A stretch of 64,000 nucleotides of DNA from a virus. Lineage: Duplodnaviria > Caudoviricetes. The notes under the pieces were generated by a model that searched no databases, had not been told where the DNA came from, and worked only from the letters and a program-made list of their open reading frames with translations. The first letter of the stretch is position 1; every line of letters begins with the position of its first letter. The translations under genes were made by a program, and so were the position numbers. Location of the stretch: the IMG/VR virus record IMGVR_UViG_3300020371_000002; one strand, written 5' to 3'. Positions 8,256 to 64,000 of this stretch are shown piece after piece.

Positions 8256-8474
8256 TTACTCGAAATCTCCTAGCATTTTACACTCAAGAATCGTCTTGTA
8301 GAGATGCATTTGGAGATCTTCTAGTCTTTCATCTAGACCATCTCTATCACGATCTTCATCTGCCTTCAAAACCTCTAAGTGTTTGGTTACTGATCTATAA
8401 AGTAGGCAGATGTCATCTAAATCAAAATCAATTATAAAGTCGGGTTGCTGTCGATCACCATCCTCATTCAGCAT
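8256..8474 (-). CDS. hypothetical protein
   Basis: ORF overlaps the fibre stop by 11 nt. Confidence 0.65.
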   Translation of the reverse strand: MLNEDGDRQQPDFIIDFDLDDICLLYRSVTKHLEVLKADEDRDRDGLDERLEDLQMHLYKTILECKMLGDFE

Positions 8475-11400
8475 GGTTATGGGACTCCAGTTTTGCTTTC
8501 AGTTCATCAATTTGTACCTGTTGTTCCTTAATTGCCTCGATGAGGAGAGGAACAAGTTTCTCATACTGAACAGTATCATACTTATTGTCAACAGGTGCAG
8601 GTTTAACTGCCTCTGGGAGAACTTTCTTAACTTCTTGAGCAGATACACCAGCATATCTAACCTCAGTATTAAATCCAAGGTTACCAGCAGTTTCATTGAA
8701 GTTATAAGTGAAACCATTAAGTGAAAGAACTTTATCAAGAGCACCACTAATACCAACCTTATCTCTCTTCAGGCGATCATCAGATGCGAAAGCAGTAATG
8801 TCACTACCAGCAGTGATTGAACCTGAAACACTAAGAGCACCAATACTTAAAGTATTACTACCACCGTTCCAAGTAATTCCATTATCAACACGACCAGCCC
8901 TATAATTACCTTGAGAATTAGCAGGAACCAGTAAAACTTGATAACTGGAACTATCAGCGGAATTAATCTTAACCTGATCCGCCTTCTCGGCAGTACCAGA
9001 TAAATTACCAGAAACAGAGAGTGACCCAGCACTAATAGCTCCAGAAACACTCAAGGAACTACCAGAGAAAGAACCACCGTTAAATGCACTTGCAGTAATT
9101 ACGTTGGAACTGAAGTTACCAGAAGCATCCCTAGCAACAATACTGTTTCCAGCATTGCCAGTGGATGTATCCATTCCATCAAGTAAGTCAGCATTAAGGT
9201 TGACACACTTAGTGATGGAACTAGTAATAATTGGTGGAGTACCAGTGGTCGCTGTGTGTACCATCTGGAAGGTATTAATCTTACCAGTAGGACCACACTC
9301 AATAGTCATATCAACGCCACTATCACCAAGAGCGGTAATAATACCAGCGTTAGCATAAAGGTCATCCGTCATCACGGATCCGTTGATACCTGAGTTCAGG
9401 AAGGTAACGGTTGCATATGTACCAACAATAGAAGTAACAACACCAGAGTTGGCAACAATTTCAAGTCCAGGTTGCCCAGGTCCTTGAGCGCCAGGTCCCA
9501 TAACAACTCGGGACTTAACAGCAGTAATAATACCAGTATTAACGAAAGCAGTAGGACCAAACAGTTGGTCAGTAAAGTTAAAGTCAGTTGCAGTTACAGC
9601 AGTACCAGCGATATTATCGTAGGTTACATTAGTACCTGTGAGGTTAGTAACAATACCAGAAGAAGCATACAACTGAGGAGTAACCACATGGTTAGAGGCA
9701 CTCATGTTAGTGACAACACCAGAGAAGATGTTTGCCTCATTGATATAAGCAGTAGTTGCATGTAATGTGGTAGTAATACCAACATCTGCATACAATCCAT
9801 TAGTTACGGATGCAACTTCTGCTCTAAAGTTGGTGACGAAACCAGTCTTAGCATAGGAATGTGTGAGTACGTTGAGACTACCAATACCCGCATTAACAGC
9901 AGTAAGAGTAGTTACATTGACTGTACCGCCATCACATTCGATGTTACCAACATCGAGAGTACCAACAAATGTACTTACACCAGCATATGTGTCATTGATT
10001 GGACCTTCAATACTGATATGTGAGGCAGGTTTGAAGGAAACGTAAGTACCAACAGTCTCGAAGTCATATGCTCGAATTACACCACCTTCATCTACAATAC
10101 TGTAGTAACCATAGTTCTCCCAAGGAATACCCTGTGGAGAGACACCACCAGTAGTATTGTATCCCCAGAAATTAGCAATCTTTCTGATAACAATACTATC
10201 GTAAGTAACACCAGAGAATGTCTGTGGAGATGCAAAGGTAACAATACCAGAAACGAACAAGTGATTCAGTTTCGTAGTACCGTTGACTTCCATAGCATCA
10301 GTAAAGTCAAATGGTCCAATACCAGACTTACCAACACCAATTTGATCGATCTTGAGGAACTGTCTATCTCTTTCTTGAGATACTACACCAAATCTTCTCC
10401 ACTCACCTTCAGCATAGATGTGTCCTAAGTAACCACCCGTATTAGGGTTGGATACAAATGACATATCACCAGATCTTGCCGCCTGAATAGGAGTAGAAAT
10501 ACCAACGGTAAGAAGTTTACCCTGTGGAGCATCACCTTTCAGGAAGAGGTTCTTAGTTTCAATACCCTCAGCAGAACTGTTAGTAAGTTTCTGGGTAAAG
10601 TTTACTGGACCATAGAACTGTGAAGTTCTATTGTTGTTATCTCCACCCTCAACCGTGATACCTTCTCTAACCAGAAGTTCATCGAAGACACCCGAAACTT
10701 TCTTAGCAGCTTCAGACTCAGCATCATCACCTGTATAGGTAAAGATTGGAGCGCCAATAACTTCTTCCTCACCAGTAATTGCAGACAGTTTATTATATCC
10801 AGTGAAGAACTCACCAGCGTCGTTCATACCAGTGTAAACAACCTTACCACCAGACTGTTCTTTCTTCTGTGCAGCAAGTTGTTCATCAGAGTTCAGAACT
10901 CTATCCTGTTTTTGAGGCAGTGATGTGGAGTAGTTACCAGAACCATAACCAAGATATTCAAATGTGTGACCAGATGCACGAAGAATAGATGGTCTGCGAA
11001 GTTCCATTGGAACGATTTCAATCTTCTTGATTGTCGAACCAACAGGAACTGCTGCAGCAACAGTACCAAACTGACCACGGAGAATGGCATTGATGTTATC
11101 GTTAGTAAATCTAATAATCTCAGCACCAATCTGACAGTAATCACCCTTCTGGAAACCAGAAGTATCAGTAAGAGTGATTGATTGGTCAGTAGAGGTTAAA
11201 GGAGCAGCAATAGATGTACTAATACCAGTCCAAATTGTTGCACCCCTTGCGTTCAGGTTATTTTCACCCAGACCCAGAGACTTGGATCTTGCTCTGAAAC
11301 CATGACCGAACAATCTAGCATCAGTTACATCATAAGAACTATCAATACCAGATGTATGAACACCAACATTGAAGTGAAGTGCTCTCAATGGAGCGAAAGG

Positions 11401-14400
11401 ATCAACGTCAACAACAGTGAATGTTCTAAAGTCGAACATCGAGTTACCAGTACCAACGATACCGAAGGTCTGACCAGCAACTAAGGTGTGGTTTGAATTA
11501 CATCTAATTGTAGCAACACCAGTTTCACCAGTTACACTGATACTTGTAAATGCAACGCCAGGGTTGGCGATGTTATACATTGGCAGTCTTCTATCAGTCC
11601 TTTCAGTATAGAAAGGAGACATAATATTTGGTTTGTCAATCTCAATGGAAACAGACTTTGCAGTTGGAATATCAACAATCTTATGTGTTCCATTGTACAT
11701 TGGATCAGCAAATCCATTCAGATCCATACCATCGCCAACATTATTGAAGATAGCAGTAACTTCAACAACAGCAGGAGAAGTAGCAGCACCAGCAGGGAAT
11801 GGATCAACTGTCATGGTGTTACCTACACCATATGCACAACCACCATCAACGATCTTAACACTGGTAACTGTACCAGCAGCAGAGATCTGAACTTCAGCGG
11901 CAGCATTCTTACCAATCAGTCCATTATTAACGAGATCAGCTGAGTAGATAACAGTAGCGATACCAGAACCATTGTTATATCCAGAACCACCGTCGATGAT
12001 GTTTACACTCTTAATGGAGTTGAATCTATGCTCTGTATCACTAAACAGAGTGACAGTGGTGTTACCTGTACCAGTAACAACCGCACCAGTTACAGCAGTA
12101 CCAACATTGAATCCCTGCATGAAGTAGTTAAGGGATTCTCTCGTAAGAGACTTCTTCTTATCATTAGAAAGAACAAGACCAACAACTTCTGGAGTGGCAA
12201 ACGATACAGAAGGTTGTGGATCAGACTCATAGTTATCTCTATCCTGTTGTGGATATAGATTTCTAACATCCTGAGAGAAGGACTTCATGGATACACCAAA
12301 TCCAAGGTCCTTATCAAGAGAAACAGAACCACAAGTCAGGATCAGGTTGTAGATACCATCTTGTCCAGATGTGCCAGGAATATGTGGTTTTGCCTCCTGA
12401 ACACGATAGACGTAAATACTATCCTTAGACTTAGATCTATGAATTGTAGGAAGATTTTCGATCTGTTGTTGTGTAGTTCTTTGGTTGATCTGACACTTAA
12501 ATTCGCCAGGATCAGTTGTAATACCAGAAATAGTAAACTGTTTTCTACCAAGAACAGTTGCAACTGGGTTCTCACCGTTAAAACCAACGTTGAATGTACC
12601 CAGTGGATTATTAACAGAATCAACCTGTCTAATAGTTACAAGGTCGCCAGGAATCAGATCATGATCTTTCTCCGTGGTAACAGTAATAGTATCGGATGAC
12701 CATGTAGCATTCTTAATGATCTTAACGTTCTTAAGTTGAGTTGGGTTCGTTAAGTCAGCACTCAAGAATGATGCACTACCAACACCAACTGTCTTGGATT
12801 CTTGAAGTACGAAACCAGGCGTAGGTGGACGTGCATTAGTATGTTCCTTAGGAATAACATATCTTGCTCTGTAAAGTCTATCTTGCAGAGATCTGTTATC
12901 AACTCTTCTCTCAAGGTATGTTGCACCAGATTCTTGACCAATAAGACCAACACCAAGAGAAGCAAATGCTGGATAGATTGTATTAGATACAGCACTAGGA
13001 TCAACGTTAATATACCAGTTGTTGTTTACACTATCAAACTGGATGGGATGACCCTTCATGCCAGGTTGTTTGTCGGAAACAGTAGAACTGATAATCAGTT
13101 TACCACCACCATTAGACAAACCAGTCAGAGGTCTACGAGCAAGTGCGTCGTTCAGAGTTGCAGCAAGTTGAAGTTTGTCTGCAGCAAGAGAACCACCAGT
13201 AATTGCATAGTAGATCTTATCATTCTTGATACCATTAGGTGTTTCTCCAGTATCAGAGAAGACTCTAACTCTCTCACCAGTGATTAACTGGTGATTCTGA
13301 ACAAGACTAAAAACGTTAGATACAATGAAGTTGACACCAGCATTACGAACAACATCGTAAACTTTTTGGTAGGAAGTAGCAATACCAGAAGTTCCAGACT
13401 CCATGAGAACTGGAGCTTCATAAACATTCTGAACTGCCTGACCAGTAGAAGTATCAACCAGTGCAAGTTTCAGAGTTTCACCTGCTCTTGCACCAACTCT
13501 ATAAGAATCAATCTCAGCAGGAGGTACAATTTCTTGAGTATTATATCCAAACAGATACAGTCTACTGGTATCAGCAATACCAATAGTCTTTTGAACGTCA
13601 AGAGTCAACCATGAGATAGTAGTATCTTCAGCAGTTAGTTCTCTAGGAGGAATGATGTGTGTGATATAACCAACATCATCACGGTCGAATGAAGAAGGTC
13701 TGAATCCACTAGATTCAAGAGCAGTTTGACCAAAGTTTGAGTTGGAGTTAGTAATAGATGCGTCACCACCTCTCTCCGCTTGGAAATGTCTGGCGAACGC
13801 AATAGCGAACACAGAAACGATCTGAACAACAGCGTTGTTCCTCACTCTCATGTGAGAAGTTTCATATGTTGGTTTGTAGATGGCAGCAGAGTTGCTGTGC
13901 AGAGGTCTATCTGCATCAGAAACAGACTGGTCATCATTAAAGATTGCAGTGTCTGGGTTATACAGAACGAAGGCATTGTCATCCTTCTGGATAGAAATAC
14001 CCGTGAACTGTGCAACAACCATCGACTTAAATCCAGTCGCCTTGTCACCATCACAGTCCATACCGTTCATACCATAAACTGAACGGAGAGAACAGTTAAA
14101 GATGTATGGAGATGCGGAACCTACAGTATCAGGTTCAATAATAATAGAAGAGTTCTGGATTTCCTGTGGGATAGGAAGTGGGTTGCCAGGTACAGATGGA
14201 GCAATATATCTAAACTCAGTATCACTCAGAACTTCCTCAACCACAAAGGAACCATTGTAGGAGTTAATAGATGTAGTGATACCAGCAATAAGAACTGGTG
14301 TCTCTTTGAAGAGGTTGTGTGCTTTGTTAGTAGTGACTGTAATTTGTGTGGAGGAGGTGTTACCGTCTCCTGCCTTAATAGAACTAATACCAACTGGATC

Positions 14401-15246
14401 AGCAGCAAGGTCACCAACAATCCTAAATTCATCAATATTTGGTTCAAAATCGTCAAACGTGGGAAAGTCACCAACTGGACGACCAGAAGCATCACCATAT
14501 GCTCTAGCAACCTTGTAGTAGAACATATCAAGGTCAGTAAGACCTGAGTCCGATCCATCAATGATTACATTGTTTACACCATCAGCATACTGGAAACAAG
14601 ACAGTTTGTGGTGAGAGAATGTTGGTTTCTTAGAGTTGCTGTTGAAATCATAATATGCAACTTTAGACAGATCAGCATCAAACAGAGAGAATGCTGTGAA
14701 GTAACAAGTACCCGTAACTCTGAATACAGATGTATATTCAAACCTATCGTCTTCAGGATCAGGCACATAGAGTGGTCTGATCTTGGTCTTACGAAGATCC
14801 AAACCAATAATAGATGTACCTCTAGGCAGAATTACACCACCCTCAGTAGAGTTGTACTTGTAGAGATCATTATTTCTATCAAGAACATCAAAGTTAGTCT
14901 CAGTAGTAAACTCATTGAGAGTAACTTCTACATAATTACTATTTCTTCTCGCCTTAAATTGGGCGCTACCATTATTATCTATTACAGTATATCCAGGCCT
15001 ATTGTCAATATAGTGTGTGCCTGGGAAAGTTAGAATCGTTGTTCTATCAATCTTATCGTTATTCTTACCCGTCTGGTACGAAAATCTTGCTGCCTCAATG
15101 AGTGCCCTCTGAATCGTTTTGAAAGGACGAGTCAGAGAGTTACCTCTGTTCTCAATACTATCAGTAGCATCAAAGTCGGAAGGGTTAACATACAGGATAT
15201 TACCTTCAGCATTCTTGAGGAAATTCTCTAATCTTGAAAGAGGCAT
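8464..15246 (-). CDS. giant virion fibre/structural protein with C-terminal Peptidase S74 intramolecular chaperone
   Basis: Typical cyanomyovirus N-terminus MPLSRLENFLKN...ILYVNP; C-terminal SDDRLK...LNGFTYNFN...GVSAQEV...VQYEKLVPLLIEAIKE. Confidence 0.85.
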   Translation of the reverse strand: MPLSRLENFLKNAEGNILYVNPSDFDATDSIENRGNSLTRPFKTIQRALIEAARFSYQTGKNNDKIDRTTILTFPGTHYIDNRPGYTVIDNNGSAQFKARRNSNYVEVTLNEFTTETNFDVLDRNNDLYKYNSTEGGVILPRGTSIIGLDLRKTKIRPLYVPDPEDDRFEYTSVFRVTGTCYFTAFSLFDADLSKVAYYDFNSNSKKPTFSHHKLSCFQYADGVNNVIIDGSDSGLTDLDMFYYKVARAYGDASGRPVGDFPTFDDFEPNIDEFRIVGDLAADPVGISSIKAGDGNTSSTQITVTTNKAHNLFKETPVLIAGITTSINSYNGSFVVEEVLSDTEFRYIAPSVPGNPLPIPQEIQNSSIIIEPDTVGSASPYIFNCSLRSVYGMNGMDCDGDKATGFKSMVVAQFTGISIQKDDNAFVLYNPDTAIFNDDQSVSDADRPLHSNSAAIYKPTYETSHMRVRNNAVVQIVSVFAIAFARHFQAERGGDASITNSNSNFGQTALESSGFRPSSFDRDDVGYITHIIPPRELTAEDTTISWLTLDVQKTIGIADTSRLYLFGYNTQEIVPPAEIDSYRVGARAGETLKLALVDTSTGQAVQNVYEAPVLMESGTSGIATSYQKVYDVVRNAGVNFIVSNVFSLVQNHQLITGERVRVFSDTGETPNGIKNDKIYYAITGGSLAADKLQLAATLNDALARRPLTGLSNGGGKLIISSTVSDKQPGMKGHPIQFDSVNNNWYINVDPSAVSNTIYPAFASLGVGLIGQESGATYLERRVDNRSLQDRLYRARYVIPKEHTNARPPTPGFVLQESKTVGVGSASFLSADLTNPTQLKNVKIIKNATWSSDTITVTTEKDHDLIPGDLVTIRQVDSVNNPLGTFNVGFNGENPVATVLGRKQFTISGITTDPGEFKCQINQRTTQQQIENLPTIHRSKSKDSIYVYRVQEAKPHIPGTSGQDGIYNLILTCGSVSLDKDLGFGVSMKSFSQDVRNLYPQQDRDNYESDPQPSVSFATPEVVGLVLSNDKKKSLTRESLNYFMQGFNVGTAVTGAVVTGTGNTTVTLFSDTEHRFNSIKSVNIIDGGSGYNNGSGIATVIYSADLVNNGLIGKNAAAEVQISAAGTVTSVKIVDGGCAYGVGNTMTVDPFPAGAATSPAVVEVTAIFNNVGDGMDLNGFADPMYNGTHKIVDIPTAKSVSIEIDKPNIMSPFYTERTDRRLPMYNIANPGVAFTSISVTGETGVATIRCNSNHTLVAGQTFGIVGTGNSMFDFRTFTVVDVDPFAPLRALHFNVGVHTSGIDSSYDVTDARLFGHGFRARSKSLGLGENNLNARGATIWTGISTSIAAPLTSTDQSITLTDTSGFQKGDYCQIGAEIIRFTNDNINAILRGQFGTVAAAVPVGSTIKKIEIVPMELRRPSILRASGHTFEYLGYGSGNYSTSLPQKQDRVLNSDEQLAAQKKEQSGGKVVYTGMNDAGEFFTGYNKLSAITGEEEVIGAPIFTYTGDDAESEAAKKVSGVFDELLVREGITVEGGDNNNRTSQFYGPVNFTQKLTNSSAEGIETKNLFLKGDAPQGKLLTVGISTPIQAARSGDMSFVSNPNTGGYLGHIYAEGEWRRFGVVSQERDRQFLKIDQIGVGKSGIGPFDFTDAMEVNGTTKLNHLFVSGIVTFASPQTFSGVTYDSIVIRKIANFWGYNTTGGVSPQGIPWENYGYYSIVDEGGVIRAYDFETVGTYVSFKPASHISIEGPINDTYAGVSTFVGTLDVGNIECDGGTVNVTTLTAVNAGIGSLNVLTHSYAKTGFVTNFRAEVASVTNGLYADVGITTTLHATTAYINEANIFSGVVTNMSASNHVVTPQLYASSGIVTNLTGTNVTYDNIAGTAVTATDFNFTDQLFGPTAFVNTGIITAVKSRVVMGPGAQGPGQPGLEIVANSGVVTSIVGTYATVTFLNSGINGSVMTDDLYANAGIITALGDSGVDMTIECGPTGKINTFQMVHTATTGTPPIITSSITKCVNLNADLLDGMDTSTGNAGNSIVARDASGNFSSNVITASAFNGGSFSGSSLSVSGAISAGSLSVSGNLSGTAEKADQVKINSADSSSYQVLLVPANSQGNYRAGRVDNGITWNGGSNTLSIGALSVSGSITAGSDITAFASDDRLKRDKVGISGALDKVLSLNGFTYNFNETAGNLGFNTEVRYAGVSAQEVKKVLPEAVKPAPVDNKYDTVQYEKLVPLLIEAIKEQQVQIDELKAKLESHNHAE

Positions 15247-54609: not shown

Positions 54610-55878
54610 TTACTTTACGCAAGAGGTACATACATGTGCCAGTTCTGGAAGATGTTCAAAGTACCCAAAGTCAAACACGGCATCGAGTTCCCAGATAAAC
54701 ATTGGGTGAGCAATGGGAGATGTAGTCCAAGGGTCATCCATCTGCACCGCGCCCTCTAAAGTAAAGTCTTGGGACATACAGATCTTCATAAACTCAGATC
54801 CTTGAACTTGATTCAGGGATACCTCAGAAGCCCAATCCCAGAAAGGAGTCTTATGAATACTTCCTCTATGGTAATGAAAAGCAATGAAGTCTCGGAATGA
54901 ACTCAGATATGTAGTGTACTGATTATTCAATTCATCTTCCGACATATCATATGTGAAATACTCAACCGCCAAAGTGGCAAGGGTTGTGTAGAGAGGAACT
55001 CCATATCCGTGAAGAGGTTCATATGTATAGAGAGCATTTCCATTTCTTAGAATTCTTCCATCAACAAACTTCTTTGAGTGATAATGGGGCCAACTAAAAG
55101 ACTTTACGTTATCTCTAAGTTTATCGTAATCAATATGTTGTCTGGGAATCCTATGTTCTCTAAGGAATCTATGTGAGTCCTCAATGGCCTCTTCTTTGGT
55201 AGTAACCTTATTATTGTATAGGTATCCCCAACTACTCCTGTTACTAACTGGTATACCAAACATCCAACCATTTGGATGGGCAATGTGATAGGTCCATTCC
55301 CAGTCTCCTGGTTTATCACAGACGTTTATGATAGCAGAATTAATTACAATCGATTCTGGGCTCTCATATGTATCATCAAATTCCTGTGGTATACCTCTAC
55401 AGTCAATAATATAATGATATTCGTGCGTCTCTCCATTCATAGAGAGATATGCCCTTTTAGAGTCCTGCCAAAACCTATCTACAGTACCATGAACTTCTTT
55501 AAACTTGTGTCCCCAATAATGTTTGAGTCTTGGCAGTACAAATGATCTCCAAGAATATGTGTCAGCGTGTACTCCTTGACAAGACAAAGACAGATACCCG
55601 TTGAGACTCTCAGGAAAGTTCTGAGACTCGCACCAGTCCACAAGGGCAACACCATGTTTGATTGTGGCATTTACTTCCTTCATATCAAAGGGAAACTGGA
55701 ACTGCAACGCTCCCCTTAGTAACTGAACGAAGTCATGCGAAAGACTTTCTCCCACGCCAATAATAGGAGAATTAGGATCGTGAATAAGATCTATTTTTAA
55801 ATTCTCTGGAGATCTGGAACACATCACCATAGCCGTGACTAGCCCTCCAGTTCCTCCACCAATGACAGCAATTTTCAT
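54610..55878 (-). CDS. tryptophan halogenase-like flavoprotein (PrnA-like)
   Basis: GGGTGG FAD motif, IGVGES, HPNGWMFGIP, GNA..TYEPL. Confidence 0.85.
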   Translation of the reverse strand: MKIAVIGGGTGGLVTAMVMCSRSPENLKIDLIHDPNSPIIGVGESLSHDFVQLLRGALQFQFPFDMKEVNATIKHGVALVDWCESQNFPESLNGYLSLSCQGVHADTYSWRSFVLPRLKHYWGHKFKEVHGTVDRFWQDSKRAYLSMNGETHEYHYIIDCRGIPQEFDDTYESPESIVINSAIINVCDKPGDWEWTYHIAHPNGWMFGIPVSNRSSWGYLYNNKVTTKEEAIEDSHRFLREHRIPRQHIDYDKLRDNVKSFSWPHYHSKKFVDGRILRNGNALYTYEPLHGYGVPLYTTLATLAVEYFTYDMSEDELNNQYTTYLSSFRDFIAFHYHRGSIHKTPFWDWASEVSLNQVQGSEFMKICMSQDFTLEGAVQMDDPWTTSPIAHPMFIWELDAVFDFGYFEHLPELAHVCTSCVK

Positions 55879-55884
55879 AGTGAA

Positions 55885-55952
55885 CCTGGCCAACGAAAAA
55901 AAGCCCAGAATTTTTTTCCGAGCTTTTTTGGAATCAAAGTCCGTTTTTGGTA
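55885..55952 (-). repeat. repeat copy 2: terminator-like hairpin plus leader
   Basis: 35-nt core identical to 36979-37013, with similar flanks. Confidence 0.85.
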
Positions 55953-56132: not shown

Positions 56133-56258
56133 TTAGATGGGGTTGTAAACGGGTTGCATCAACCCACCACCTTGATCATCATCGTCGTCAGTTTTATCAG
56201 CAAAGACGACTGACCATAATATGAATGATCCAATCAGCGATGCTGCTAAAACTAACAT
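56133..56258 (-). CDS. 41-aa membrane peptide
   Basis: MLVLAASLIGSFILWSVVFADKTDDDDDQGGGLMQPVYNPI. Confidence 0.65.
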   Translation of the reverse strand: MLVLAASLIGSFILWSVVFADKTDDDDDQGGGLMQPVYNPI

Positions 56259-56365
56259 TACCAAACTCCTGGGATGAGTTGTCCTGTGGTTGCATAAGAA
56301 CCAAATGCTGCAACGATACCGATCATTGCTGCCCAACCGTTAAACTTTTCTGCTTCTGGTGTCAT
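56258..56365 (-). CDS. hli: high-light-inducible protein, 35 aa (not in track)
   Basis: MTPEAEKFNGWAAMIGIVAAFGSYATTGQLIPGVW; AExxNGxxAMxG motif. Confidence 0.92.
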   Translation of the reverse strand: MTPEAEKFNGWAAMIGIVAAFGSYATTGQLIPGVW

Positions 56366-56384: not shown

Positions 56385-56594
56385 TTAAACTAATCCGAAA
56401 AATAGGTTACCAGTGAAGGTATATGAGATTGCTCCGAAGAGAATACCCATCATTGCTGCACGTCCGTTCCAAAGTTCTGCTTTTTCAGCATGAGTTTGGT
56501 ATCCGTAACGTTCTGCATCTGTTTTAGAAACCCACATTTGTGGTTCCTTAGCGAACATGTTCTGTTGTCCGTACTCGTTTGTTGTAACAGTCAT
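56385..56594 (-). CDS. hli: high-light-inducible protein
   Basis: NMFAKEP...AELWNGRAAMMG. Confidence 0.95.
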   Translation of the reverse strand: MTVTTNEYGQQNMFAKEPQMWVSKTDAERYGYQTHAEKAELWNGRAAMMGILFGAISYTFTGNLFFGLV

Positions 56595-56632: not shown

Positions 56633-56671
56633 ATTATATAGGAAACGTAAAGTTTTGTCAACAAAGTTAAC
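56633..56671 (-). promoter_or_regulatory. consensus sigma70 promoter TTGACA-17-TATAAT with HLR1-like direct repeats
   Basis: GTTAACTT-TG-TTGACAAA-AC-TTTACGTT at 10-nt period across the -35. Confidence 0.75.
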
Positions 56672-59075
56672 AATCGATTTTCCAGATTCTCTGACAATAA
56701 TCCTTGATAGATCTGTCTGAAGAGAAGAACCCAGATCTGGCAATGTTTTTCAGTGATTTCTTATACCAATCTTTTCTGTCAACCCAGTTCTCACTAACTT
56801 GATCTTGTACAGAAACATAGTGTTCTAGGTCAGCCAAAACAAAGAATGGATCGTGATTAATAATGTTGTCTAATAGGTCCGAGAAAAGATTCTGATCACC
56901 GTGACTAAAATGTCCAACTCTAATCAGATTTAATGCCTCTTCAATCTCATGGTTGAGGAAATTCCTTGGATAGTATCCATTGGATTGTAACTGACCAATC
57001 TCTTCCTCATTCTTACCAAACAAGAAGAAGTTTTCTTCACCTACAAGGTCACGGATCTCTACGTTAGCACCATCAAGTGTACCAATAGTCAAAGCACCGT
57101 TCATCTGGAACTTCATATTACCTGTACCAGATGCTTCCTTACCTGCGGTAGAGATCTGTTCTGATAGATCTGCGGCAGGGTAAACCAACTCACCCAACTT
57201 GACACTATAGTTTGGAAGGAATACAACTTTGAGTTTACCCTCCATGTCTGGGTCAGAATTAATTACCTCAGCAAGACAATTAATAAAGTGGATGATCTGT
57301 TTGGCCATGTAATATCCAGGTGCAGCTTTACCACCAAAGATTACGGTTCTGGGAACATAACTGGCACCATTCTTAATGCGAAGGTATTGAATAACAACTT
57401 CAAGAGCCTTCAGGTGTTGTCTCTTGTACTCATGAATCCTCTTCACATGAACATCAAACATACTAGAAGGATCTACAAGTACACCAAGATTATTATTGAT
57501 GTAAGAAGCAAGTTTATGTTTTCCAATCAGTTTGGTCTCTGCAATCTTCTCTAGAAGATTAGAATCATCCTGTTGTTCTTCCAGTTTCCTAAGGATATCC
57601 ATGTTGGTTACCCACTCAGGTCCAACAGCATCATCTAAAACCTCAGCGAGTGGTTGATTACATGACTTCAACCAACGTCGTGGAGTCACACCATTAGTAA
57701 CGTTCTCGAACTTGTGTGGCCACAAATCATAGAACTCTGGCATCAACTGACTCTTAACCAACTCAGAGTGGAGAACTGCAACACCATTCACATGGTGAGA
57801 TCCAACAGTTGCAAGGTGAGCCATTCGTACAGACTTGTTACCATCTTCACAGATGATAGAGAGTTTAGAAAGCATCTCAGAATCGCCAGGATACTTCAAT
57901 CTAACTACCTGTAGGAACCTCTCATTGATCTCGTAGATGATCTCTAGGTGACGAGGCAGGAGTTCTTCGAACATACTAACGTCCCACTTCTCTAACGCCT
58001 CAGGCAGGAGTGTATGGTTGGTATATGCAATCGACTTACTTGTAACACTCCATGCTGTATCCCAGTCCAACTGATGTTCATCAATCAACAGTCTCATCAA
58101 CTCTGCGACAGCAATAGATGGATGAGTATCATTGAGTTGCAGTGTATAGTAATCTGCAAAATCAGTTACAGGAACACCCCTCTTGATAAGAGACATCAAC
58201 ATGTCCTGAATAGAACAACTCACAAAGAAGAATTGTTGTTTCAGTCTCAACTGGCGTCCTGCATCTGTTCCATCGTTAGGGTACAGAACCTTAGAGATAG
58301 TCTCAGAACGAACACTCTCTTCTACAGATCCAAGATAGTCTCCCTGATTGAAAGCACCAAAGTCAAATATATCTTTAGCATCGGCTCTCCAGAGTCTTAA
58401 CTTATTACACCCGTTTTTATATCCCACCTGAAGAACGTCATAAGGAACACCCTCAACAATCTGAGAGGGAACCCAACGACTTTTATATGTGCCATCAGTG
58501 GATGAAGTATAGTGTTCTACCTTACCACCGAATCCAACTGTACGAGTGTCATCAGGGTAGGCAAGTTCCCAAGGCCATCCACCATGCAACCAGTTATCAG
58601 TAACCTCATACTGTTGATTATCAGAAATGACCTGTTTAAAGATACCAAATTTATATCTAATACCGTATCCAATAGCAGGTACTTCTAGAGTCGATAGAGA
58701 CTCCATATAACATGCAGCCAGACGACCAAGACCTCCATTACCCAGTCCAGGTTCCTCTGACTTCTCTAGAACCTCCTCAAGGGTAAGATCATACTGTTCT
58801 AATGCTTGTCTGGCTTCCTCTTGAATACCAAGGTTGACAAGATTATTTCCTAACTGTGGTCCAATCAAAAATTCTGCGGACAAGTATGCAACTTGTTTTG
58901 TATTCTCAGACTTGGCTAACTGATTCAGATGAAGATCCATCATCCGATCCCTTACTGCATAACAGAGTGCCATATAAAAATCATATGCACTTGCAGTATC
59001 GACACGTTTTCCTAGAGTATAAAAGATATGTTGTCCAATACTGTCTAGGAGTTCATTCTTATTAGTTGTGGTCAT
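56667..59075 (-). CDS. glgP: glycogen/alpha-glucan phosphorylase (GT35)
   Basis: GLGNGGLGRLAACY, QLNDTHP, KRIHEYKRQ, EASGTGNMKF...TLDGANVE (PLP Lys); 802 aa, full length. Confidence 0.96.
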   Translation of the reverse strand: MTTTNKNELLDSIGQHIFYTLGKRVDTASAYDFYMALCYAVRDRMMDLHLNQLAKSENTKQVAYLSAEFLIGPQLGNNLVNLGIQEEARQALEQYDLTLEEVLEKSEEPGLGNGGLGRLAACYMESLSTLEVPAIGYGIRYKFGIFKQVISDNQQYEVTDNWLHGGWPWELAYPDDTRTVGFGGKVEHYTSSTDGTYKSRWVPSQIVEGVPYDVLQVGYKNGCNKLRLWRADAKDIFDFGAFNQGDYLGSVEESVRSETISKVLYPNDGTDAGRQLRLKQQFFFVSCSIQDMLMSLIKRGVPVTDFADYYTLQLNDTHPSIAVAELMRLLIDEHQLDWDTAWSVTSKSIAYTNHTLLPEALEKWDVSMFEELLPRHLEIIYEINERFLQVVRLKYPGDSEMLSKLSIICEDGNKSVRMAHLATVGSHHVNGVAVLHSELVKSQLMPEFYDLWPHKFENVTNGVTPRRWLKSCNQPLAEVLDDAVGPEWVTNMDILRKLEEQQDDSNLLEKIAETKLIGKHKLASYINNNLGVLVDPSSMFDVHVKRIHEYKRQHLKALEVVIQYLRIKNGASYVPRTVIFGGKAAPGYYMAKQIIHFINCLAEVINSDPDMEGKLKVVFLPNYSVKLGELVYPAADLSEQISTAGKEASGTGNMKFQMNGALTIGTLDGANVEIRDLVGEENFFLFGKNEEEIGQLQSNGYYPRNFLNHEIEEALNLIRVGHFSHGDQNLFSDLLDNIINHDPFFVLADLEHYVSVQDQVSENWVDRKDWYKKSLKNIARSGFFSSDRSIKDYCQRIWKIDC

Positions 59076-59077
59076 GG

Positions 59078-59674
59078 TTAGTTAGTGATAGAAGGCAAAT
59101 CGAATTTGTACCATCCTGTTGCGATGTACTTCTTCTGTGTTTCGGAAATTTGACTCTTGTGTGTATGAGTCCAGTAGGCAGGCCAAATAACTGCACGTCC
59201 TGCAACTGCTTCAATAATAGTTTCTTGTTCTAAAAACATAGTTCCCCCATCAGGAACGTCATTCAAATAAATCATCCATACCAGAATCCTATTAGTTCCT
59301 GATACTGAATCGGGATAATCCTCCCACCCACCTTGTTCACAATGCCATCCTTTGAATCCACCGCCAGGTTGATACATCTGGATGTTGTACTTATGATCTA
59401 GACTCCACTCATCACTAACATTGGCGACACCAGGGTGTTGTTCAATGTACTCACCTGTAAGTTCGATAAGTTTTTCTTTAAGTATTAGATCACAAGCATC
59501 TTCAGTATTGAAAGACTTGCACCAATCAGTAGAATCTTTCCATGCCTTGTTAGCATCATAAGACCCCTGAGTTACCCCAGGGGTAAATTCACCATGATTA
59601 ATGTGAAACAATTTTATTAATCGTTCACACTCTTTTGGTGTTAAAACATTATCCTTCACATATGTGAACTTCAT
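59078..59674 (-). CDS. 2OG-Fe(II) oxygenase
   Basis: WHCE...RILVWMIYLNDV..GGTMF...WPAYWTHTH...KYIATGW. Confidence 0.88.
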   Translation of the reverse strand: MKFTYVKDNVLTPKECERLIKLFHINHGEFTPGVTQGSYDANKAWKDSTDWCKSFNTEDACDLILKEKLIELTGEYIEQHPGVANVSDEWSLDHKYNIQMYQPGGGFKGWHCEQGGWEDYPDSVSGTNRILVWMIYLNDVPDGGTMFLEQETIIEAVAGRAVIWPAYWTHTHKSQISETQKKYIATGWYKFDLPSITN

Positions 59675-59841
59675 GCATTCAGTCTCTCTTCAATCGCGAG
59701 CAATGTTTCATATGGAATCCATGCAGGTTCCTCATCTTTGAATTGAACCTCCACTTCTTTTACATTTTTCTGTAGCCACTTTGAGTACACAACACGAGTG
59801 TTTTGTACATAGGAAATAGGATTCATGTAACTATTTTTCAT
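59671..59841 (-). CDS. hypothetical protein, 56 aa (not in track)
   Basis: ...VKEVEVQFKDEEPAWIPYETL. Confidence 0.65.
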   Translation of the reverse strand: MKNSYMNPISYVQNTRVVYSKWLQKNVKEVEVQFKDEEPAWIPYETLLAIEERLNA

Positions 59842-59859: not shown

Positions 59860-60888
59860 TTATCGGACATCATGTCCACCAAACATGTAACGCATACCAT
59901 TCAAGATTTTGTTTGCATATCTTCCTAACTTTCTCGAATTAAATCGTTCAAAGAGAGCAGCAGATATAACAGGAGTGGGCACGCCGAGGTCCACAGCAGC
60001 ATGAAGAGTCCAACGACCTTCACCACTATCGCTGACACCCCCGTCAAACTTGTTGAGATCGTCATTATCGTGGCGTAATACATCAGCGGTAAGGTCAAGT
60101 AACCAGCTACCAACAACAGAACCACGACGCCAAAGCTCAGCAACCTCAGTAGTATCAATGTCGTACTGATAATCTTCGGGGTGTTCCATGGGAGCGACCT
60201 CGGCATCGCCTTCCACCACATAACTTCTTCCTGCATTTGCCTCATGAAGTAGGTTAAAACCTTCCGCATAAGCTTGCATGATTCCATATTCAACTCCGTT
60301 ATGGACCATCTTTACGAAGTGACCTGCGCCTGGTGGTCCACAATGTAACCAACCAAATTCTGCACTAGTTGATGTTGTGTATGGATCTGTTCTGGGTGCT
60401 GCACCCATGCCAGGTGAAAGAGCCCTGAAAATGGGGGCACAAACAGATACTGCCACACTTGAACCACCAACCATAAGACAGTATCCACGCTCCAAACCAA
60501 ACACACCACCGCTAGTACCGCAGTCAATAAATTGGATACCCAAGTTTTCCAAGAATTTTGCCCTGCGTCTACTGTCTTTAAAATTGGAATTGCCATGATC
60601 AATAATAATATCTCCACTGCTAAGTAATGGTAGTAACTCATTGATTGTCTCCTCTACGTTTTCTGCAGGGACAACCAACTGAAAAATACCATTCTCCAGT
60701 CCTCCCTTCTTTACCTCCTGTACAAGTAATGGAATGTCAGTGGTAACTCCACTAACATAACCCTTTTCATATGCCTCTTGGGCCTTTTGGTAGTTGCGGC
60801 GATAACCCCAAACTTCAATACCTTCTTTCATCATGCGGCGAGACATGCCCTCGCCCATTCTCCCTAGTCCGATGATACCGACTCTCAT
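59860..60888 (-). CDS. gnd: 6-phosphogluconate dehydrogenase (decarboxylating)
   Basis: GIIGLGRMG, IDHGNS, DCGTSGG, GHFVKMVHNGVEYG, DSGEGRW; start MRVGII. Confidence 0.97.
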   Translation of the reverse strand: MRVGIIGLGRMGEGMSRRMMKEGIEVWGYRRNYQKAQEAYEKGYVSGVTTDIPLLVQEVKKGGLENGIFQLVVPAENVEETINELLPLLSSGDIIIDHGNSNFKDSRRRAKFLENLGIQFIDCGTSGGVFGLERGYCLMVGGSSVAVSVCAPIFRALSPGMGAAPRTDPYTTSTSAEFGWLHCGPPGAGHFVKMVHNGVEYGIMQAYAEGFNLLHEANAGRSYVVEGDAEVAPMEHPEDYQYDIDTTEVAELWRRGSVVGSWLLDLTADVLRHDNDDLNKFDGGVSDSGEGRWTLHAAVDLGVPTPVISAALFERFNSRKLGRYANKILNGMRYMFGGHDVR

Positions 60889-60889
60889 T

Positions 60890-62218
60890 TTAAGCTCCTG
60901 GATAATCCCATTTTGTAATTGACTGATGCCCTTTTGGTCCCCACTCACCTGAGAAGTATGGGGACGGTTTCGTGTCTATTCTACATGCCTCTCCCTGGCA
61001 TAGAAGATCATCTACAATCCTCCAAGATTCTAAAACCTCTTCGGAGTGAACAAAGTGTGATTGATCTCCATGGATGGCGTCATATAATAATTTGACATAA
61101 CCATCACTTGCATTCTCTGTCGGATACTGATGCGACAGGACTGCCGTTTGTACCTTGTCCTCAAGACCAGGCGATTTAATATCGATGCTAATATTGAGTG
61201 AAGGATTTGGTTGAATACGAATATAAATTTTATCTTCGTAATCATGTCCTTGAAATAGATGCAATGGTGGTTGTTTCAATTTAATAACAACCTCAGCACA
61301 TCTCATAGGCATCTTCTTACCTGTCAAGAAGTAGAAGGGAACACCCTTCCATCTCCAATTATCTATGTAGATATCGCCAGCACTGTATGTGGCAGTCTGT
61401 GACGACTCTTTAACACCTTCTTCTTCTCTGTACCCAACATACTGACCAGAGGTAAGTTTTTCACCAAGTCTGGCAGCAGCAAGAACTTTAACTTTCTCTC
61501 TACGAATTTCTCTTGCACTATTTCTGCAAGGTGGTTCCATTGCAATCAACGAAAGTATTTGCAGCATATGATTCTGCAACATATCACGGACTGCACCAGC
61601 ACCTTCATAGTATTGAGATCTACCTTCACATCCGATAGTCTCGGTCGCAAAGATCTGCACCTCACTCACATAGTTTCTGTTCCAGAGAGGTTCCAATAAT
61701 GTATTAGAGAATCTCGTAGCAAGTATATTATTGACCGTATCTTTGCCAAGATAATGATCAATACGATAGACCTGTTTCTCACGGAGATGTTCAGACACTA
61801 CCTGCTGAAGATTCTCAGCAGATTTCAAGTCATGTCCAAACGGTTTCTCAATAACCACCCTAGACTTATCAATGTCATCTAGACATCCAGCCAACTTCAA
61901 ATGTTTAATTCCATCTGCATACTTTTCTGGTGGTACAGAAAGAAAGTATGTGGTATTGCAATCAAATTTAAGAACACCTAAAGACTCAGGTCTACTGAGA
62001 TTGACAGGTTTATAGTCCATCAAGTCTTGAAATGCCTTAGGGTACTCCCCAATCTTCTCAAACCATTCGTATCTCTTGAGAACAGTTCGAGATGCACCAA
62101 TAATTTTAAAGTTTCTGGGGAGAAGTTTCCTCAGCCAGAGTTCATACAAAGAAGGTATTAGTTTACGGCGACAGAGATCTCCCGTCGCACCGAAAATTAC
62201 TATGCAATTATCCATCAA
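60890..62218 (-). CDS. zwf: glucose-6-phosphate dehydrogenase
   Basis: GATGDL, EKPFG, RIDHYLGK, RDMLQNH, NWRWKGVPF. Confidence 0.97.
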   Translation of the reverse strand: MMDNCIVIFGATGDLCRRKLIPSLYELWLRKLLPRNFKIIGASRTVLKRYEWFEKIGEYPKAFQDLMDYKPVNLSRPESLGVLKFDCNTTYFLSVPPEKYADGIKHLKLAGCLDDIDKSRVVIEKPFGHDLKSAENLQQVVSEHLREKQVYRIDHYLGKDTVNNILATRFSNTLLEPLWNRNYVSEVQIFATETIGCEGRSQYYEGAGAVRDMLQNHMLQILSLIAMEPPCRNSAREIRREKVKVLAAARLGEKLTSGQYVGYREEEGVKESSQTATYSAGDIYIDNWRWKGVPFYFLTGKKMPMRCAEVVIKLKQPPLHLFQGHDYEDKIYIRIQPNPSLNISIDIKSPGLEDKVQTAVLSHQYPTENASDGYVKLLYDAIHGDQSHFVHSEEVLESWRIVDDLLCQGEACRIDTKPSPYFSGEWGPKGHQSITKWDYPGA

Positions 62219-62733: not shown

Positions 62734-62817
62734 TTAACCTCGGTATCTACCTGGCCATGTTAACTGCATTCCAGAAACTAACAATAGAATAAATGCAAAT
62801 GCAAACAATACACTCAT
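62734..62817 (-). CDS. 27-aa membrane peptide (not in track)
   Basis: MSVLFAFAFILLLVSGMQLTWPGRYRG; coupled to the ptox stop. Confidence 0.5.
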   Translation of the reverse strand: MSVLFAFAFILLLVSGMQLTWPGRYRG

Positions 62818-63317
62818 TTGATCATCTCAATTGCTTTATGTAGTTCTCTTGAATGCTCTAGTTCATCATTTAAGATCTCAAGGATCTTATCATCATGACC
62901 ATTCAAAGCAAGATACTTAGCATAAGTCTCTGCTGCATGGATCTCTACTTCGTAGGAGAGATGGTAAGCAGCGCGAGGAGCCACCCAATAATAAACCACA
63001 TTGACCCAATAGTAGATAAGTACAAGGTGTCGGGCGAAAAAGCGATCAATCCAATAAGAATTGCCACCCCGACTTTCCATATACTCCAGATGTTCTGTTT
63101 CGTTAAGAGTCTGAGCAAAATGTTCCTCCATCAAATAGATGTGTTCTGGACCTCGTAAACCCATAGATTCTCTCAAGTGCAACACACTTAAGAATGCAAA
63201 GTATGGTGCCCGAGCAATCTCCTCTAGTACCCAAAAACGTTGATAATCCCTCCCTCTGTATAAGAAATCAATGATTGCGACTGTGATGTTTAATGTGATC
63301 TCGTTGAAGCGTTGCAT
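62814..63317 (-). CDS. ptox: plastoquinol terminal oxidase
   Basis: RFWVLEEIARAPYF, NETEHL, EVEIHA.ETY, DELEH di-iron ligands. Confidence 0.95.
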   Translation of the reverse strand: MQRFNEITLNITVAIIDFLYRGRDYQRFWVLEEIARAPYFAFLSVLHLRESMGLRGPEHIYLMEEHFAQTLNETEHLEYMESRGGNSYWIDRFFARHLVLIYYWVNVVYYWVAPRAAYHLSYEVEIHAAETYAKYLALNGHDDKILEILNDELEHSRELHKAIEMIK

Positions 63318-63376
63318 AAGCAGGGCCTCTTAGGAATAATCCTATTATATCTAGGTATTTTCACTAGTGTGAATTG

Positions 63377-64000
63377 TTAGTAAATCAACTCATTTCCTAG
63401 GACTAAGGCATCAATATCCATAGACATATAAGCCCTTACAGCATCTTCAGGAGTCTCCACAATTGGCATACCATTATCATTAAATGAAGTGTTTAATAGT
63501 ACAGGCACTCCACATAGATTCCACATCTCCTGTAACAACTGAGCGAGAGGTCCATCACTAACTGTCTGCAGTCTACATGTGCCATCCTCATGCGTAATCG
63601 CAGGGATCATACGTCGTCTGTCATGTCTAACAAACTGAGAGAATAACATATATGGGTTATCCACACCCTCTTCAACAAAGTCATCCAGATGATCCCGCAA
63701 AATGACACCAGCAAAAGGTCTCCATGGTTCCCTGTGTTTAACTCGTTCGTTTAAAATCTTTTTATTCTTTGCAGCACAAGGACTCATAAGAATAGATCTA
63801 GATCCCAATGCTCTAGGACCAAACTCCGACCTACCTTGGAACCAGGCAACAATCTTCCCCTGATTCAATAACTCTGCAACTTCTTTGATAGTATCTTCAG
63901 CAACAGGTTCCGTATATTCTTTACCAAGGAAGGCAAGATTATCTGGGACAGTTACATCATCACATCCCCATGCTGCAGCACCATAACTCAATCCACAATC
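63377..64000 (-). CDS. carbamoyltransferase (second copy), C-terminal part; begins beyond the window
   Basis: GRSEFGPRALGSRSIL, VKHREPWRPFA, LLNTSFN..G.PIVETP. Confidence 0.9.
   Translation of the reverse strand, partial: DCGLSYGAAAWGCDDVTVPDNLAFLGKEYTEPVAEDTIKEVAELLNQGKIVAWFQGRSEFGPRALGSRSILMSPCAAKNKKILNERVKHREPWRPFAGVILRDHLDDFVEEGVDNPYMLFSQFVRHDRRRMIPAITHEDGTCRLQTVSDGPLAQLLQEMWNLCGVPVLLNTSFNDNGMPIVETPEDAVRAYMSMDIDALVLGNELIY

Follow-up and report, generated by a model that had tools for sequence, protein, structure and literature searches.

Can a phage of marine cyanobacteria draw on the glycogen of its host? The question is raised by a 64,000-nucleotide stretch of viral DNA (IMG/VR record IMGVR_UViG_3300020371_000002; hereafter the window), in which a minus-strand open reading frame (ORF), glgP, is predicted to encode a glycogen phosphorylase. 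A first reading made from the letters alone (the sequence-only reading) had described an 802-aa enzyme of family GT35 with intact motifs, lying among phage genes, and both points were upheld in the analysis reported here. As judged from its sequence, the glgP of the window is a genuine, intact phage-borne gene under purifying selection, and we consider it probable that its product is active and that, during infection, it passes glycogen by way of glucose-1-phosphate to the pentose-phosphate genes of the phage.

The glgP ORF starts with ATG and runs for 802 codons with zero internal stops. Its product (P0001) matches the Pfam family PF00343 (Phosphorylase) over the full length of the profile (positions 1–713 of 713; 1025 bits, cut-off 27) and TIGR02093 over positions 2–804 of 804 (1138 bits, cut-off 553); the best solved relative is an 855-aa alpha-1,4-glucan phosphorylase (971 bits), and rabbit muscle glycogen phosphorylase scores ~808 bits. 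Seven catalytic and cofactor motifs, namely GLGNGGLGRLAAC (residue 110), LNDTHP (314), TNHT (352), NGVTPRRW (461), VKRIHEYKRQ (544), GGKAAPGY (581) and EASGTGNMK (647–655), are complete in the window protein as well as in 87 of 87 phage-context copies. By rabbit muscle numbering, we take the Gly-rich loop GLGNGGLGR, the His of TNHT, the Asn of NGVTPRRW and the Lys, Arg, Tyr and Lys of VKRIHEYKRQ to have phosphate- and glucosyl-site roles, and K655, the lysine that forms the Schiff base with pyridoxal phosphate (PLP), is presumably equivalent to K680 of the rabbit enzyme. The equivalog profiles for GlgP (NF011562) and MalP (NF011561) both score ~912–920 bits, under their cut-offs of 1546 and 1273. 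Since the phage clade described below descends from the core GlgP of the Cyanobiaceae, which is the single hit in most small genomes, its ancestry favours glycogen as the likely substrate.

In order to place the phage copies among their cellular relatives, as the sequence-only reading had proposed, a maximum-likelihood tree was built from 144 sequences and 802 columns (LG+G4, short search). One clade, with a Shimodaira–Hasegawa-like approximate likelihood ratio (SH-aLRT) support of 100 and a stem length of 0.40, takes in all 87 phage-context copies. It forms a three-way split, left unresolved by the tree, with core GlgP from marine picocyanobacteria in two groups; other cyanobacteria, proteobacteria and the extra paralogs of Cyanobium type branch outside that split. 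Core GlgP was detected in 119 of the 121 genomes of the family Cyanobiaceae and is 63–67% identical to the window protein. An initial set of nearest cellular relatives, made up of 58%-identical Vulcanococcus/Cyanobium paralogs and proteobacteria, was rejected as an artefact of pattern-based retrieval once the family-wide search had returned the 63–67% identical core enzymes. The core GlgP of Prochlorococcus and Synechococcus, a member of the same GT35 family, is thus the nearest cellular relative of the phage enzyme and its neighbour in the tree. Within the phage clade, the earliest-branching subclade consists of the window and the loci L002, L003 and L086, and its sister group holds the copy of the cultured phage S-SCSM2R and 82 others. 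On the simplest reading, glgP would have been captured once, long ago, from a picocyanobacterial host and would then have spread among phages.

Does the gene belong to the phage, or was it joined to the phage contig in assembly? Over both glgP junctions, L002 and L003 (IMG/VR contigs) are collinear with the window at 98.3% and 97.6% nucleotide identity. L086 (a contig from ENA) is 82% identical in nucleotides over glgP and its immediate flanks and shares the oxygenase, hli, halogenase and psbA neighbours of the window, in the order oxygenase-glgP-hli-halogenase. These three contigs come from different strains, were separately assembled and are non-identical. Four sources record the identical protein, on 20 contigs in all, and the longest contig (226.6 kb) has the size of an S-SSM7-type genome, and DNA of the glgP region is present in marine metagenome runs from nine studies dated 2014–2025. 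The G+C content at third codon positions (GC3) of glgP is 0.365, within the range of zwf, gnd and the oxygenase gene (0.33–0.38) and outside both host ranges (0.21–0.27 for Prochlorococcus-sized and 0.66–0.78 for Synechococcus-sized copies of glgP), which bears out the earlier remark on phage-like, A/T-ending codons. When the window glgP was compared with six phage homologs, the ratio of nonsynonymous to synonymous substitution rates (dN/dS) was 0.09–0.15. Because this ratio stays low even though synonymous sites are saturated between subclades, selection has kept glgP in phages for a long time.

These data also bear on the possibility that glgP is a passenger or decaying gene, either recently captured from a host or brought in by a chimeric assembly, with no role in the phage. 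In favour of this, glgP is rare, being found in one of ~480 cultured cyanomyovirus records and in 3 of 57 related contigs at the regA site. However, the copies (at least 87) form a single clade on a long stem, are only 63–67% identical to any host copy, retain every motif, carry phage-like codons and have diverged to synonymous saturation under a low dN/dS, and three independent assemblies are collinear across the junctions, with the exact protein on 20 contigs. A chimera with host DNA, which the sequence-only reading had named as a danger, is ruled out by these collinear assemblies together with the composition and the selection estimate. The passenger explanation as a whole is very improbable and is excluded as far as the sequence data reach. 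The nearest record, G001, is 69% complete and has none of the glgP region, and so gave no empty-site comparison; as a flank for such a comparison, the 2-oxoglutarate (2OG) oxygenase belongs to a multi-copy family and is at most 41% identical in isolates. With its location in phage genomes, its host origin and its selective maintenance, glgP can be placed with the host-derived carbon genes of cyanophages as a probable auxiliary metabolic gene (AMG).

Compared to the core GlgP of the hosts (839–845 aa), the phage form is ~40 aa shorter, and the difference lies at the two ends. In 30 of 30 hosts, an N-terminal peptide (M..S.P.DLRLPTPGC..DPE) that starts 21 residues ahead of the phage start carries an invariant Cys16, and a C-terminal tail (P.PVEITC...) carries an invariant Cys837; the 844-aa GlgP of L175 is one example among the host loci (L175–L204). 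Both peptides are absent from 87 of 87 phage copies, which end 0–8 residues (mostly 1–4) past the ...DYC..IW motif. The window protein ends in ...IWKIDC, with a terminal Cys that is specific to its subclade, and an N-terminal extension is impossible here because there is a stop two codons ahead of the ATG. Considering that all outgroup enzymes examined, cyanobacterial and proteobacterial, have tails and N-terminal extensions, the absence of both from the phage enzymes is a derived loss. Host core and phage GlgP share 309 invariant alignment columns, among them those of every catalytic motif and of three core cysteines that no phage copy lacks. In contrast, 18 substitutions are fixed in the phage clade, and most phage copies have replaced two other cysteines that are invariant in the hosts: only 16 of the 87 copies retain Cys202 and only four retain Cys311, the window being among those with the Cys311 equivalent (C287).

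Having lost both Cys-bearing peptides, phage GlgP has probably escaped any control that the host exerts by way of them. The C-terminal peptide has been described as a distinctive regulatory element of cyanobacterial GlgPs (PMC12892837), and that of Synechocystis GlgP1, a regulatory extension with Cys837 and Cys842, is a thioredoxin-sensitive redox switch (bioRxiv 10.1101/2022.11.21.517384). The marine hosts have a Cys-bearing tail at the equivalent place, whereas in the phage enzyme a tail is missing altogether. As an observation on the hosts themselves, the Cys16 and Cys837 peptides of marine picocyanobacteria may represent a thiol-based control that is distinct from the CxxxxC switch of GlgP1 and possibly undescribed.

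How widespread is this truncated enzyme? A scan of IMG/VR gave glgP relatives on 197 viral contigs, and a large protein search returned thousands of relatives of 792–800 aa at ~71% identity. Among 50,697 phage records, S-SCSM2R is the only isolate with a cyanophage copy, that is, one of ~480 cyanomyovirus isolate records; cyanophage-grade RegA (60–90% identity), by comparison, occurs in ~476 phage records, and IMG/VR holds at least 599 RegA contigs as against the 197 with glgP. When the 57 RegA contigs nearest to a contig with glgP were inspected, three of them (~5%) had glgP downstream of regA. We conclude that glgP is a minority accessory gene of T4-like cyanomyoviruses.

Clustering of the ORFs around glgP in 86 loci showed that the gene occupies at least four genome sites: between regA and gp43 (commonest order regA-glgP-hsp20-gp43), next to nrdB (nrdB-glgP), in the AMG island of the window and next to petF (petF-glgP). 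In 54 of 80 loci regA is directly upstream, with gp62 preceding it, and at this site glgP is followed by an Hsp20 gene (21 loci), a phosphomannomutase (PMM)-like gene (12), a 2OG oxygenase gene (10) or small ORFs, and then by gp43. A 139.6-kb Tara scaffold shows the arrangement in full (gp45-gp44-gp62-regA-glgP-hsp20-gp43-uvsX-gp41), and a 170-kb NCBI contig reads petF-glgP...purC-psbA-...-thyX-phoH. At the nrdB-glgP site, a SegE-type GIY-YIG homing endonuclease gene was found just downstream of glgP in four loci (L022:3454–3888 (+), and likewise L031, L056 and L057), raising the plausible possibility that a homing endonuclease served as a vehicle for the transfer of glgP between co-infecting phages.

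In the window, the genes around glgP are all on the minus strand (Table 1). In the direction of transcription, a carbamoyltransferase gene, of which only the C-terminal part is contained in the window, is followed by PTOX, two small ORFs, zwf, gnd, a 56-aa ORF, the 2OG-Fe(II) oxygenase gene and glgP, and then by hli, a small ORF, a DUF7191 ORF, a tryptophan-halogenase-like gene that is also found near glgP in L086, psbA, psbD and petE. The earlier statement that glgP is embedded among phage genes is thereby extended to a whole run of same-strand neighbours. Elsewhere in the window, gp32, phoH, gp33 and baseplate genes match those of T4-like cyanomyoviruses from the S-SSM7/S-SSM6a lineage. The G+C content of the window is flat at ~0.40, and one very large ORF has 2260 aa.

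Table 1. Positions of glgP, its catalytic lysine motif, neighbouring genes and candidate promoters in the window
Feature	Position	Strand	Remarks
glgP	56667..59075	-	802-aa GT35 glycogen/alpha-glucan phosphorylase (P0001); phage 'core-only' form without the host N- and C-terminal peptides
EASGTGNMK motif	57111..57137	-	last codon (57111-57113) encodes the PLP Schiff-base lysine K655; motif in 87/87 phage copies
2OG-Fe(II) oxygenase (PF13640)	59078..59674	-	stop codon 2 nt ahead of glgP ATG; same neighbour in L086
56-aa ORF	59671..59841	-	no family match; 4-nt overlap with oxygenase start
gnd, 6-phosphogluconate dehydrogenase (PF03446 + PF00393)	59860..60948	-	listed GTG start is mechanical; true start uncertain
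zwf, glucose-6-phosphate dehydrogenase (PF00479 + PF02781)	60890..62218	-	listed TTG start is mechanical and uncertain
PTOX/alternative oxidase-like (PF01786)	62814..63317	-	probably first gene of the unit
Carbamoyltransferase (PF16861)	63377..63991	-	C-terminal part only; upstream of PTOX
hli, high-light-inducible protein	56385..56594	-	directly downstream of glgP; 72-nt gap between
Small ORF	56133..56336	-	strand as neighbours; downstream of hli
Tryptophan-halogenase-like gene (PF04820)	54610..55893	-	between hli and psbA
Very large ORF	8464..15246	-	2260 aa
Sigma-70 promoter	56633..56661	-	TTGACA-17-TATAAT, 12/12; begins 6 nt past glgP stop, ahead of hli
Sigma-70-like promoter candidate	63344..63373	-	TTCACA-18-TATAAT, 11/12; ahead of PTOX; next good candidate upstream

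The spacing of these genes was then considered together with candidate signals. The 56-aa ORF meets the oxygenase gene in a junction of 4 nt, and the oxygenase gene meets glgP in one of 2 nt; no terminator-like site was seen in the intergenic gaps of the unit, three weak ones (3 G-C pairs each) lying within ORFs. Since a consensus promoter comes right after glgP and before hli, glgP is read as the putative last cistron of a PTOX-zwf-gnd-oxygenase-glgP unit that would be transcribed by host-type RNA polymerase, possibly from the 11/12 candidate ahead of PTOX. The T4-type late promoter TATAAATA was not found near the unit, and in the window as a whole it is about as frequent as chance predicts.

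This gene order suggests a use for the enzyme. Phage GlgP would release glucose-1-phosphate from host glycogen granules with phosphate, and a phosphohexomutase, which in this phage would be that of the host, would convert it to glucose-6-phosphate; in about a quarter of glgP-bearing phages, the mutase may be a linked HAD-type PMM-like enzyme. Glucose-6-phosphate would then enter the oxidative pentose-phosphate pathway via phage Zwf and Gnd, giving NADPH as well as ribose-5-phosphate for deoxynucleotide synthesis. Such a route fits the gene order of the window and also the placement of most other copies at the regA-gp43 and nrdB sites. The genes cp12, talC, zwf and gnd were reportedly described by Thompson and colleagues (PNAS, 2011) as host-derived central-carbon genes of T4-like cyanophages, and CP12, TalC, Zwf and Gnd are said there to redirect carbon into the pentose-phosphate pathway. 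Compared with this set, the window glgP sits directly downstream of zwf and gnd and would act one or two steps earlier, at the storage polymer; phage glgP is also much rarer than phage zwf and gnd. According to work attributed to Puxty and colleagues (2016), CO2 fixation can reportedly stop under infection, in which case the evident source of carbon would be the glycogen in store. From the identity of the enzyme and its context, we infer on good grounds that glycogen is mobilised in infection.

A more far-reaching version of this proposal is possible, and we put it forward tentatively. A GlgP stripped of its regulatory peptides to a 'core' might open the glycogen store regardless of redox state or of day and night and, together with a linked HAD-type mutase, Zwf and Gnd, might make up a fully phage-encoded route to NADPH and ribose-5-phosphate, one that would decide the success of replication when CO2 fixation is off, at night or at depth. 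Related to it is the suggestion that phage GlgP serves energy supply in darkness or at depth, sustaining ATP and reductant by respiration of glycogen when photosynthesis is unavailable, so that the phage could complete its cycle at night or in low light, as the sequence-only reading had supposed. Cyanophage replication is light-dependent in many systems, which is a point for this suggestion, as is the PTOX/alternative oxidase gene in the same island; cyanobacteria at night use glycogen via GlgP and the oxidative pentose-phosphate pathway (PMC12892837). However, psbA, psbD, hli and petE in the same island are of use to a phage infecting cells in the light, and a dark energy supply is a special case of fuelling the pentose-phosphate route, from which nothing here separates it. 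As an explanation in its own right we regard it as improbable.

A candidate for the step after GlgP is the PMM-like gene. The encoded HAD-IIB protein has 231–251 aa (281 aa in two loci, where it is called from an upstream ATG), matches the Pfam family PF03332 ('eukaryotic phosphomannomutase') at 77.5 bits (cut-off 22.4), and its nearest solved relatives are all PMM1/PMM2-type enzymes. Of 85 loci, 19 have this gene downstream of glgP at a distance of no more than four genes, and a 20th has it 13 genes away; nine loci show a 4-nt overlap between its start and the stop of glgP. The DxDGT nucleophile motif is found at residue 7 in 18 of the 20 copies, the other two being those called from an upstream ATG, in which the motif falls outside the stretch scanned. 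The copy at L079:5800–6525 (+) may serve as an example, others being those of L066, L073, L075, L059, L051, L042, L037 and L032. At 76 RegA loci that lack glgP, none was found. P-TIM68, S-SSM7 and S-SSM6a have homologs under the label of hypothetical proteins, and in PHROGs the family is phrog_29277, 'unknown function'. Eukaryotic PMMs also interconvert glucose-1-phosphate and glucose-6-phosphate, and the PMM-like protein could therefore be the mutase that follows GlgP. A phage phosphoglucomutase was also sought in the window, in S-SCSM2R and in G125, a contig near-identical to the window, and was rejected as a candidate there, as neither a phosphohexomutase motif nor a PMM-like homolog was found.

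Alternatively, glucose-1-phosphate might be channelled mainly into sugar nucleotides, to UDP-glucose and, via a mutase or isomerase, to GDP-mannose, for phage glycan-building genes (Ugd, GT11, GT25, GT24 and epimerases) that modify the host envelope or the virion. UDP-glucose can be made from glucose-1-phosphate without any mutase, and what the gene linked to glgP in roughly one locus in four encodes is, by sequence, a phosphomannomutase. Glycan genes are indeed found in the vicinity of several copies: S-SCSM2R has GT11, GT1 and GT2 genes upstream of glgP and a GT24 gene overlapping its stop, L082 has Ugd, two GT11 genes and a GT25 gene upstream, L086 has GT11 and GT25 genes upstream, and in G125 Ugd lies 11.6 kb upstream on the same strand. 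The last is a UDP-glucose 6-dehydrogenase gene (G125:C1:13754–14254, L285; PF03721, 103 bits), ~7 kb past the end of the window. In the dominant context (54 of 80 loci), however, glgP is flanked by regA and hsp20/gp43 and glycan genes do not adjoin it, the immediate neighbours in the window are zwf and gnd and not glycosyltransferases, and no gene for UTP-glucose-1-phosphate uridylyltransferase was seen adjoining glgP. The hexose need of glycan synthesis is, moreover, far below the whole glycogen store. A supply of sugar nucleotides is compatible with the pentose-phosphate route and could be a second sink beside it; as the main purpose of the gene we hold it to be unlikely.

Evidence of expression was sought in metatranscriptomes. 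In four RNA libraries of three studies, assembled contigs match sections of glgP with an identity of at least 95%, such as 57965–58655 (X17) and 58856–59084 (X19). Coverage of the region in metatranscriptomic runs is patchy, with a far higher depth over psbA, as expected of RNA; the RNA data are assembled contigs, and their depth is unfit for ranking glgP against its neighbours. These observations give weak to moderate support to transcription of glgP in the sea. The RNA contigs of X16 and X19 both carry a 3-nt insertion (CCC) behind position 56166, inside the small ORF downstream of hli, which is probably strain variation.

Several observations weigh against the route from glycogen into the phage pentose-phosphate genes, or against parts of it. 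Adjacency to zwf and gnd is confined to the small subclade of the window, most phage copies being in the replication module, and even L086, at 89% identity, lacks zwf and gnd immediately upstream. The promoter and operon assignments come from consensus scans, which gave 33 promoter-like sites in the region where 25.6 were expected from shuffles. The 64-kb window contains no PMM-like homolog and no alpha-D-phosphohexomutase motif, and it is equally possible that the PMM-like enzyme acts in mannose instead of glucose metabolism. DNA carry-over is possible in RNA libraries, and run X16, which evenly covers every bin, may contain DNA. As for regulation, deletion of the C-terminal peptide of Synechocystis GlgP1 lowered its activity (bioRxiv 10.1101/2022.11.21.517384), and we therefore rejected the missing tail as proof of constitutive activity; the tails of the marine hosts have one Cys, compared with the CxxxxC pair of GlgP1, and the effect of removing the GlgP1 tail is not transferable to the phage enzyme. 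With these points taken into account, a flow of glycogen into the pentose-phosphate route is still the reading we prefer.

How much of this was known? The GT35 family is textbook knowledge, and phage copies of glgP are already in public databases. In S-SCSM2R, ORF260 ('carbohydrate phosphorylase', PQ898602.1) is a full-length member of the same phage clade, 69% identical to the window protein, and likewise belongs to an AMG island, which there includes hli, petF and psbA. It differs from the window copy in having petF-peroxiredoxin upstream and GT24 downstream, no adjacent zwf or gnd, and a long branch (0.46). The main text of the S-SCSM2R paper (PMC12801897) does not discuss the phosphorylase gene, and the S-SCSM1 paper mentions neither glycogen nor phosphorylase. 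Another glycogen gene of marine viruses, glgA (glycogen synthase), was reported from Pacific Ocean viromes, with no phosphorylase mentioned there (Hurwitz et al. 2013, PMC4053976); it belongs to another family and acts in synthesis. A passage in a review (PMC10452541) relays from Waldbauer et al. 2019 that glycogen phosphorylase homologs occur on viral metagenome fragments. Our full-text literature search found no paper describing, placing or testing a cyanophage glgP. The sequence-only reading had placed glgP outside the standard cyanophage AMGs, and its rarity among isolates and the missing description agree with that; the gene is no newcomer to the databases, being called 'starch phosphorylase' in IMG, present on ~197 IMG/VR contigs and in S-SCSM2R, and grouped in PHROGs as phrog_23782 ('unknown function'). 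What appears to be new is the single large phage clade, the loss of the host terminal peptides and the linkage to a PMM-like gene.

Cyanophages are known to turn off the Calvin cycle and to increase flow through the pentose-phosphate pathway, and the source of the hexose that this pathway consumes is rarely addressed; a phage-owned glycogen phosphorylase points to host glycogen as that source. Carried on about 200 public viral contigs, glgP has been missed by annotation pipelines and by models of infected-cell metabolism, as its PHROGs label and the lack of a paper discussing it indicate. The loss of the Cys-bearing peptides amounts to a natural experiment on their role in picocyanobacterial GlgP and, since a glgP-bearing phage, S-SCSM2R, is in culture, the question of whether cyanophages use host glycogen can be put to a direct test.

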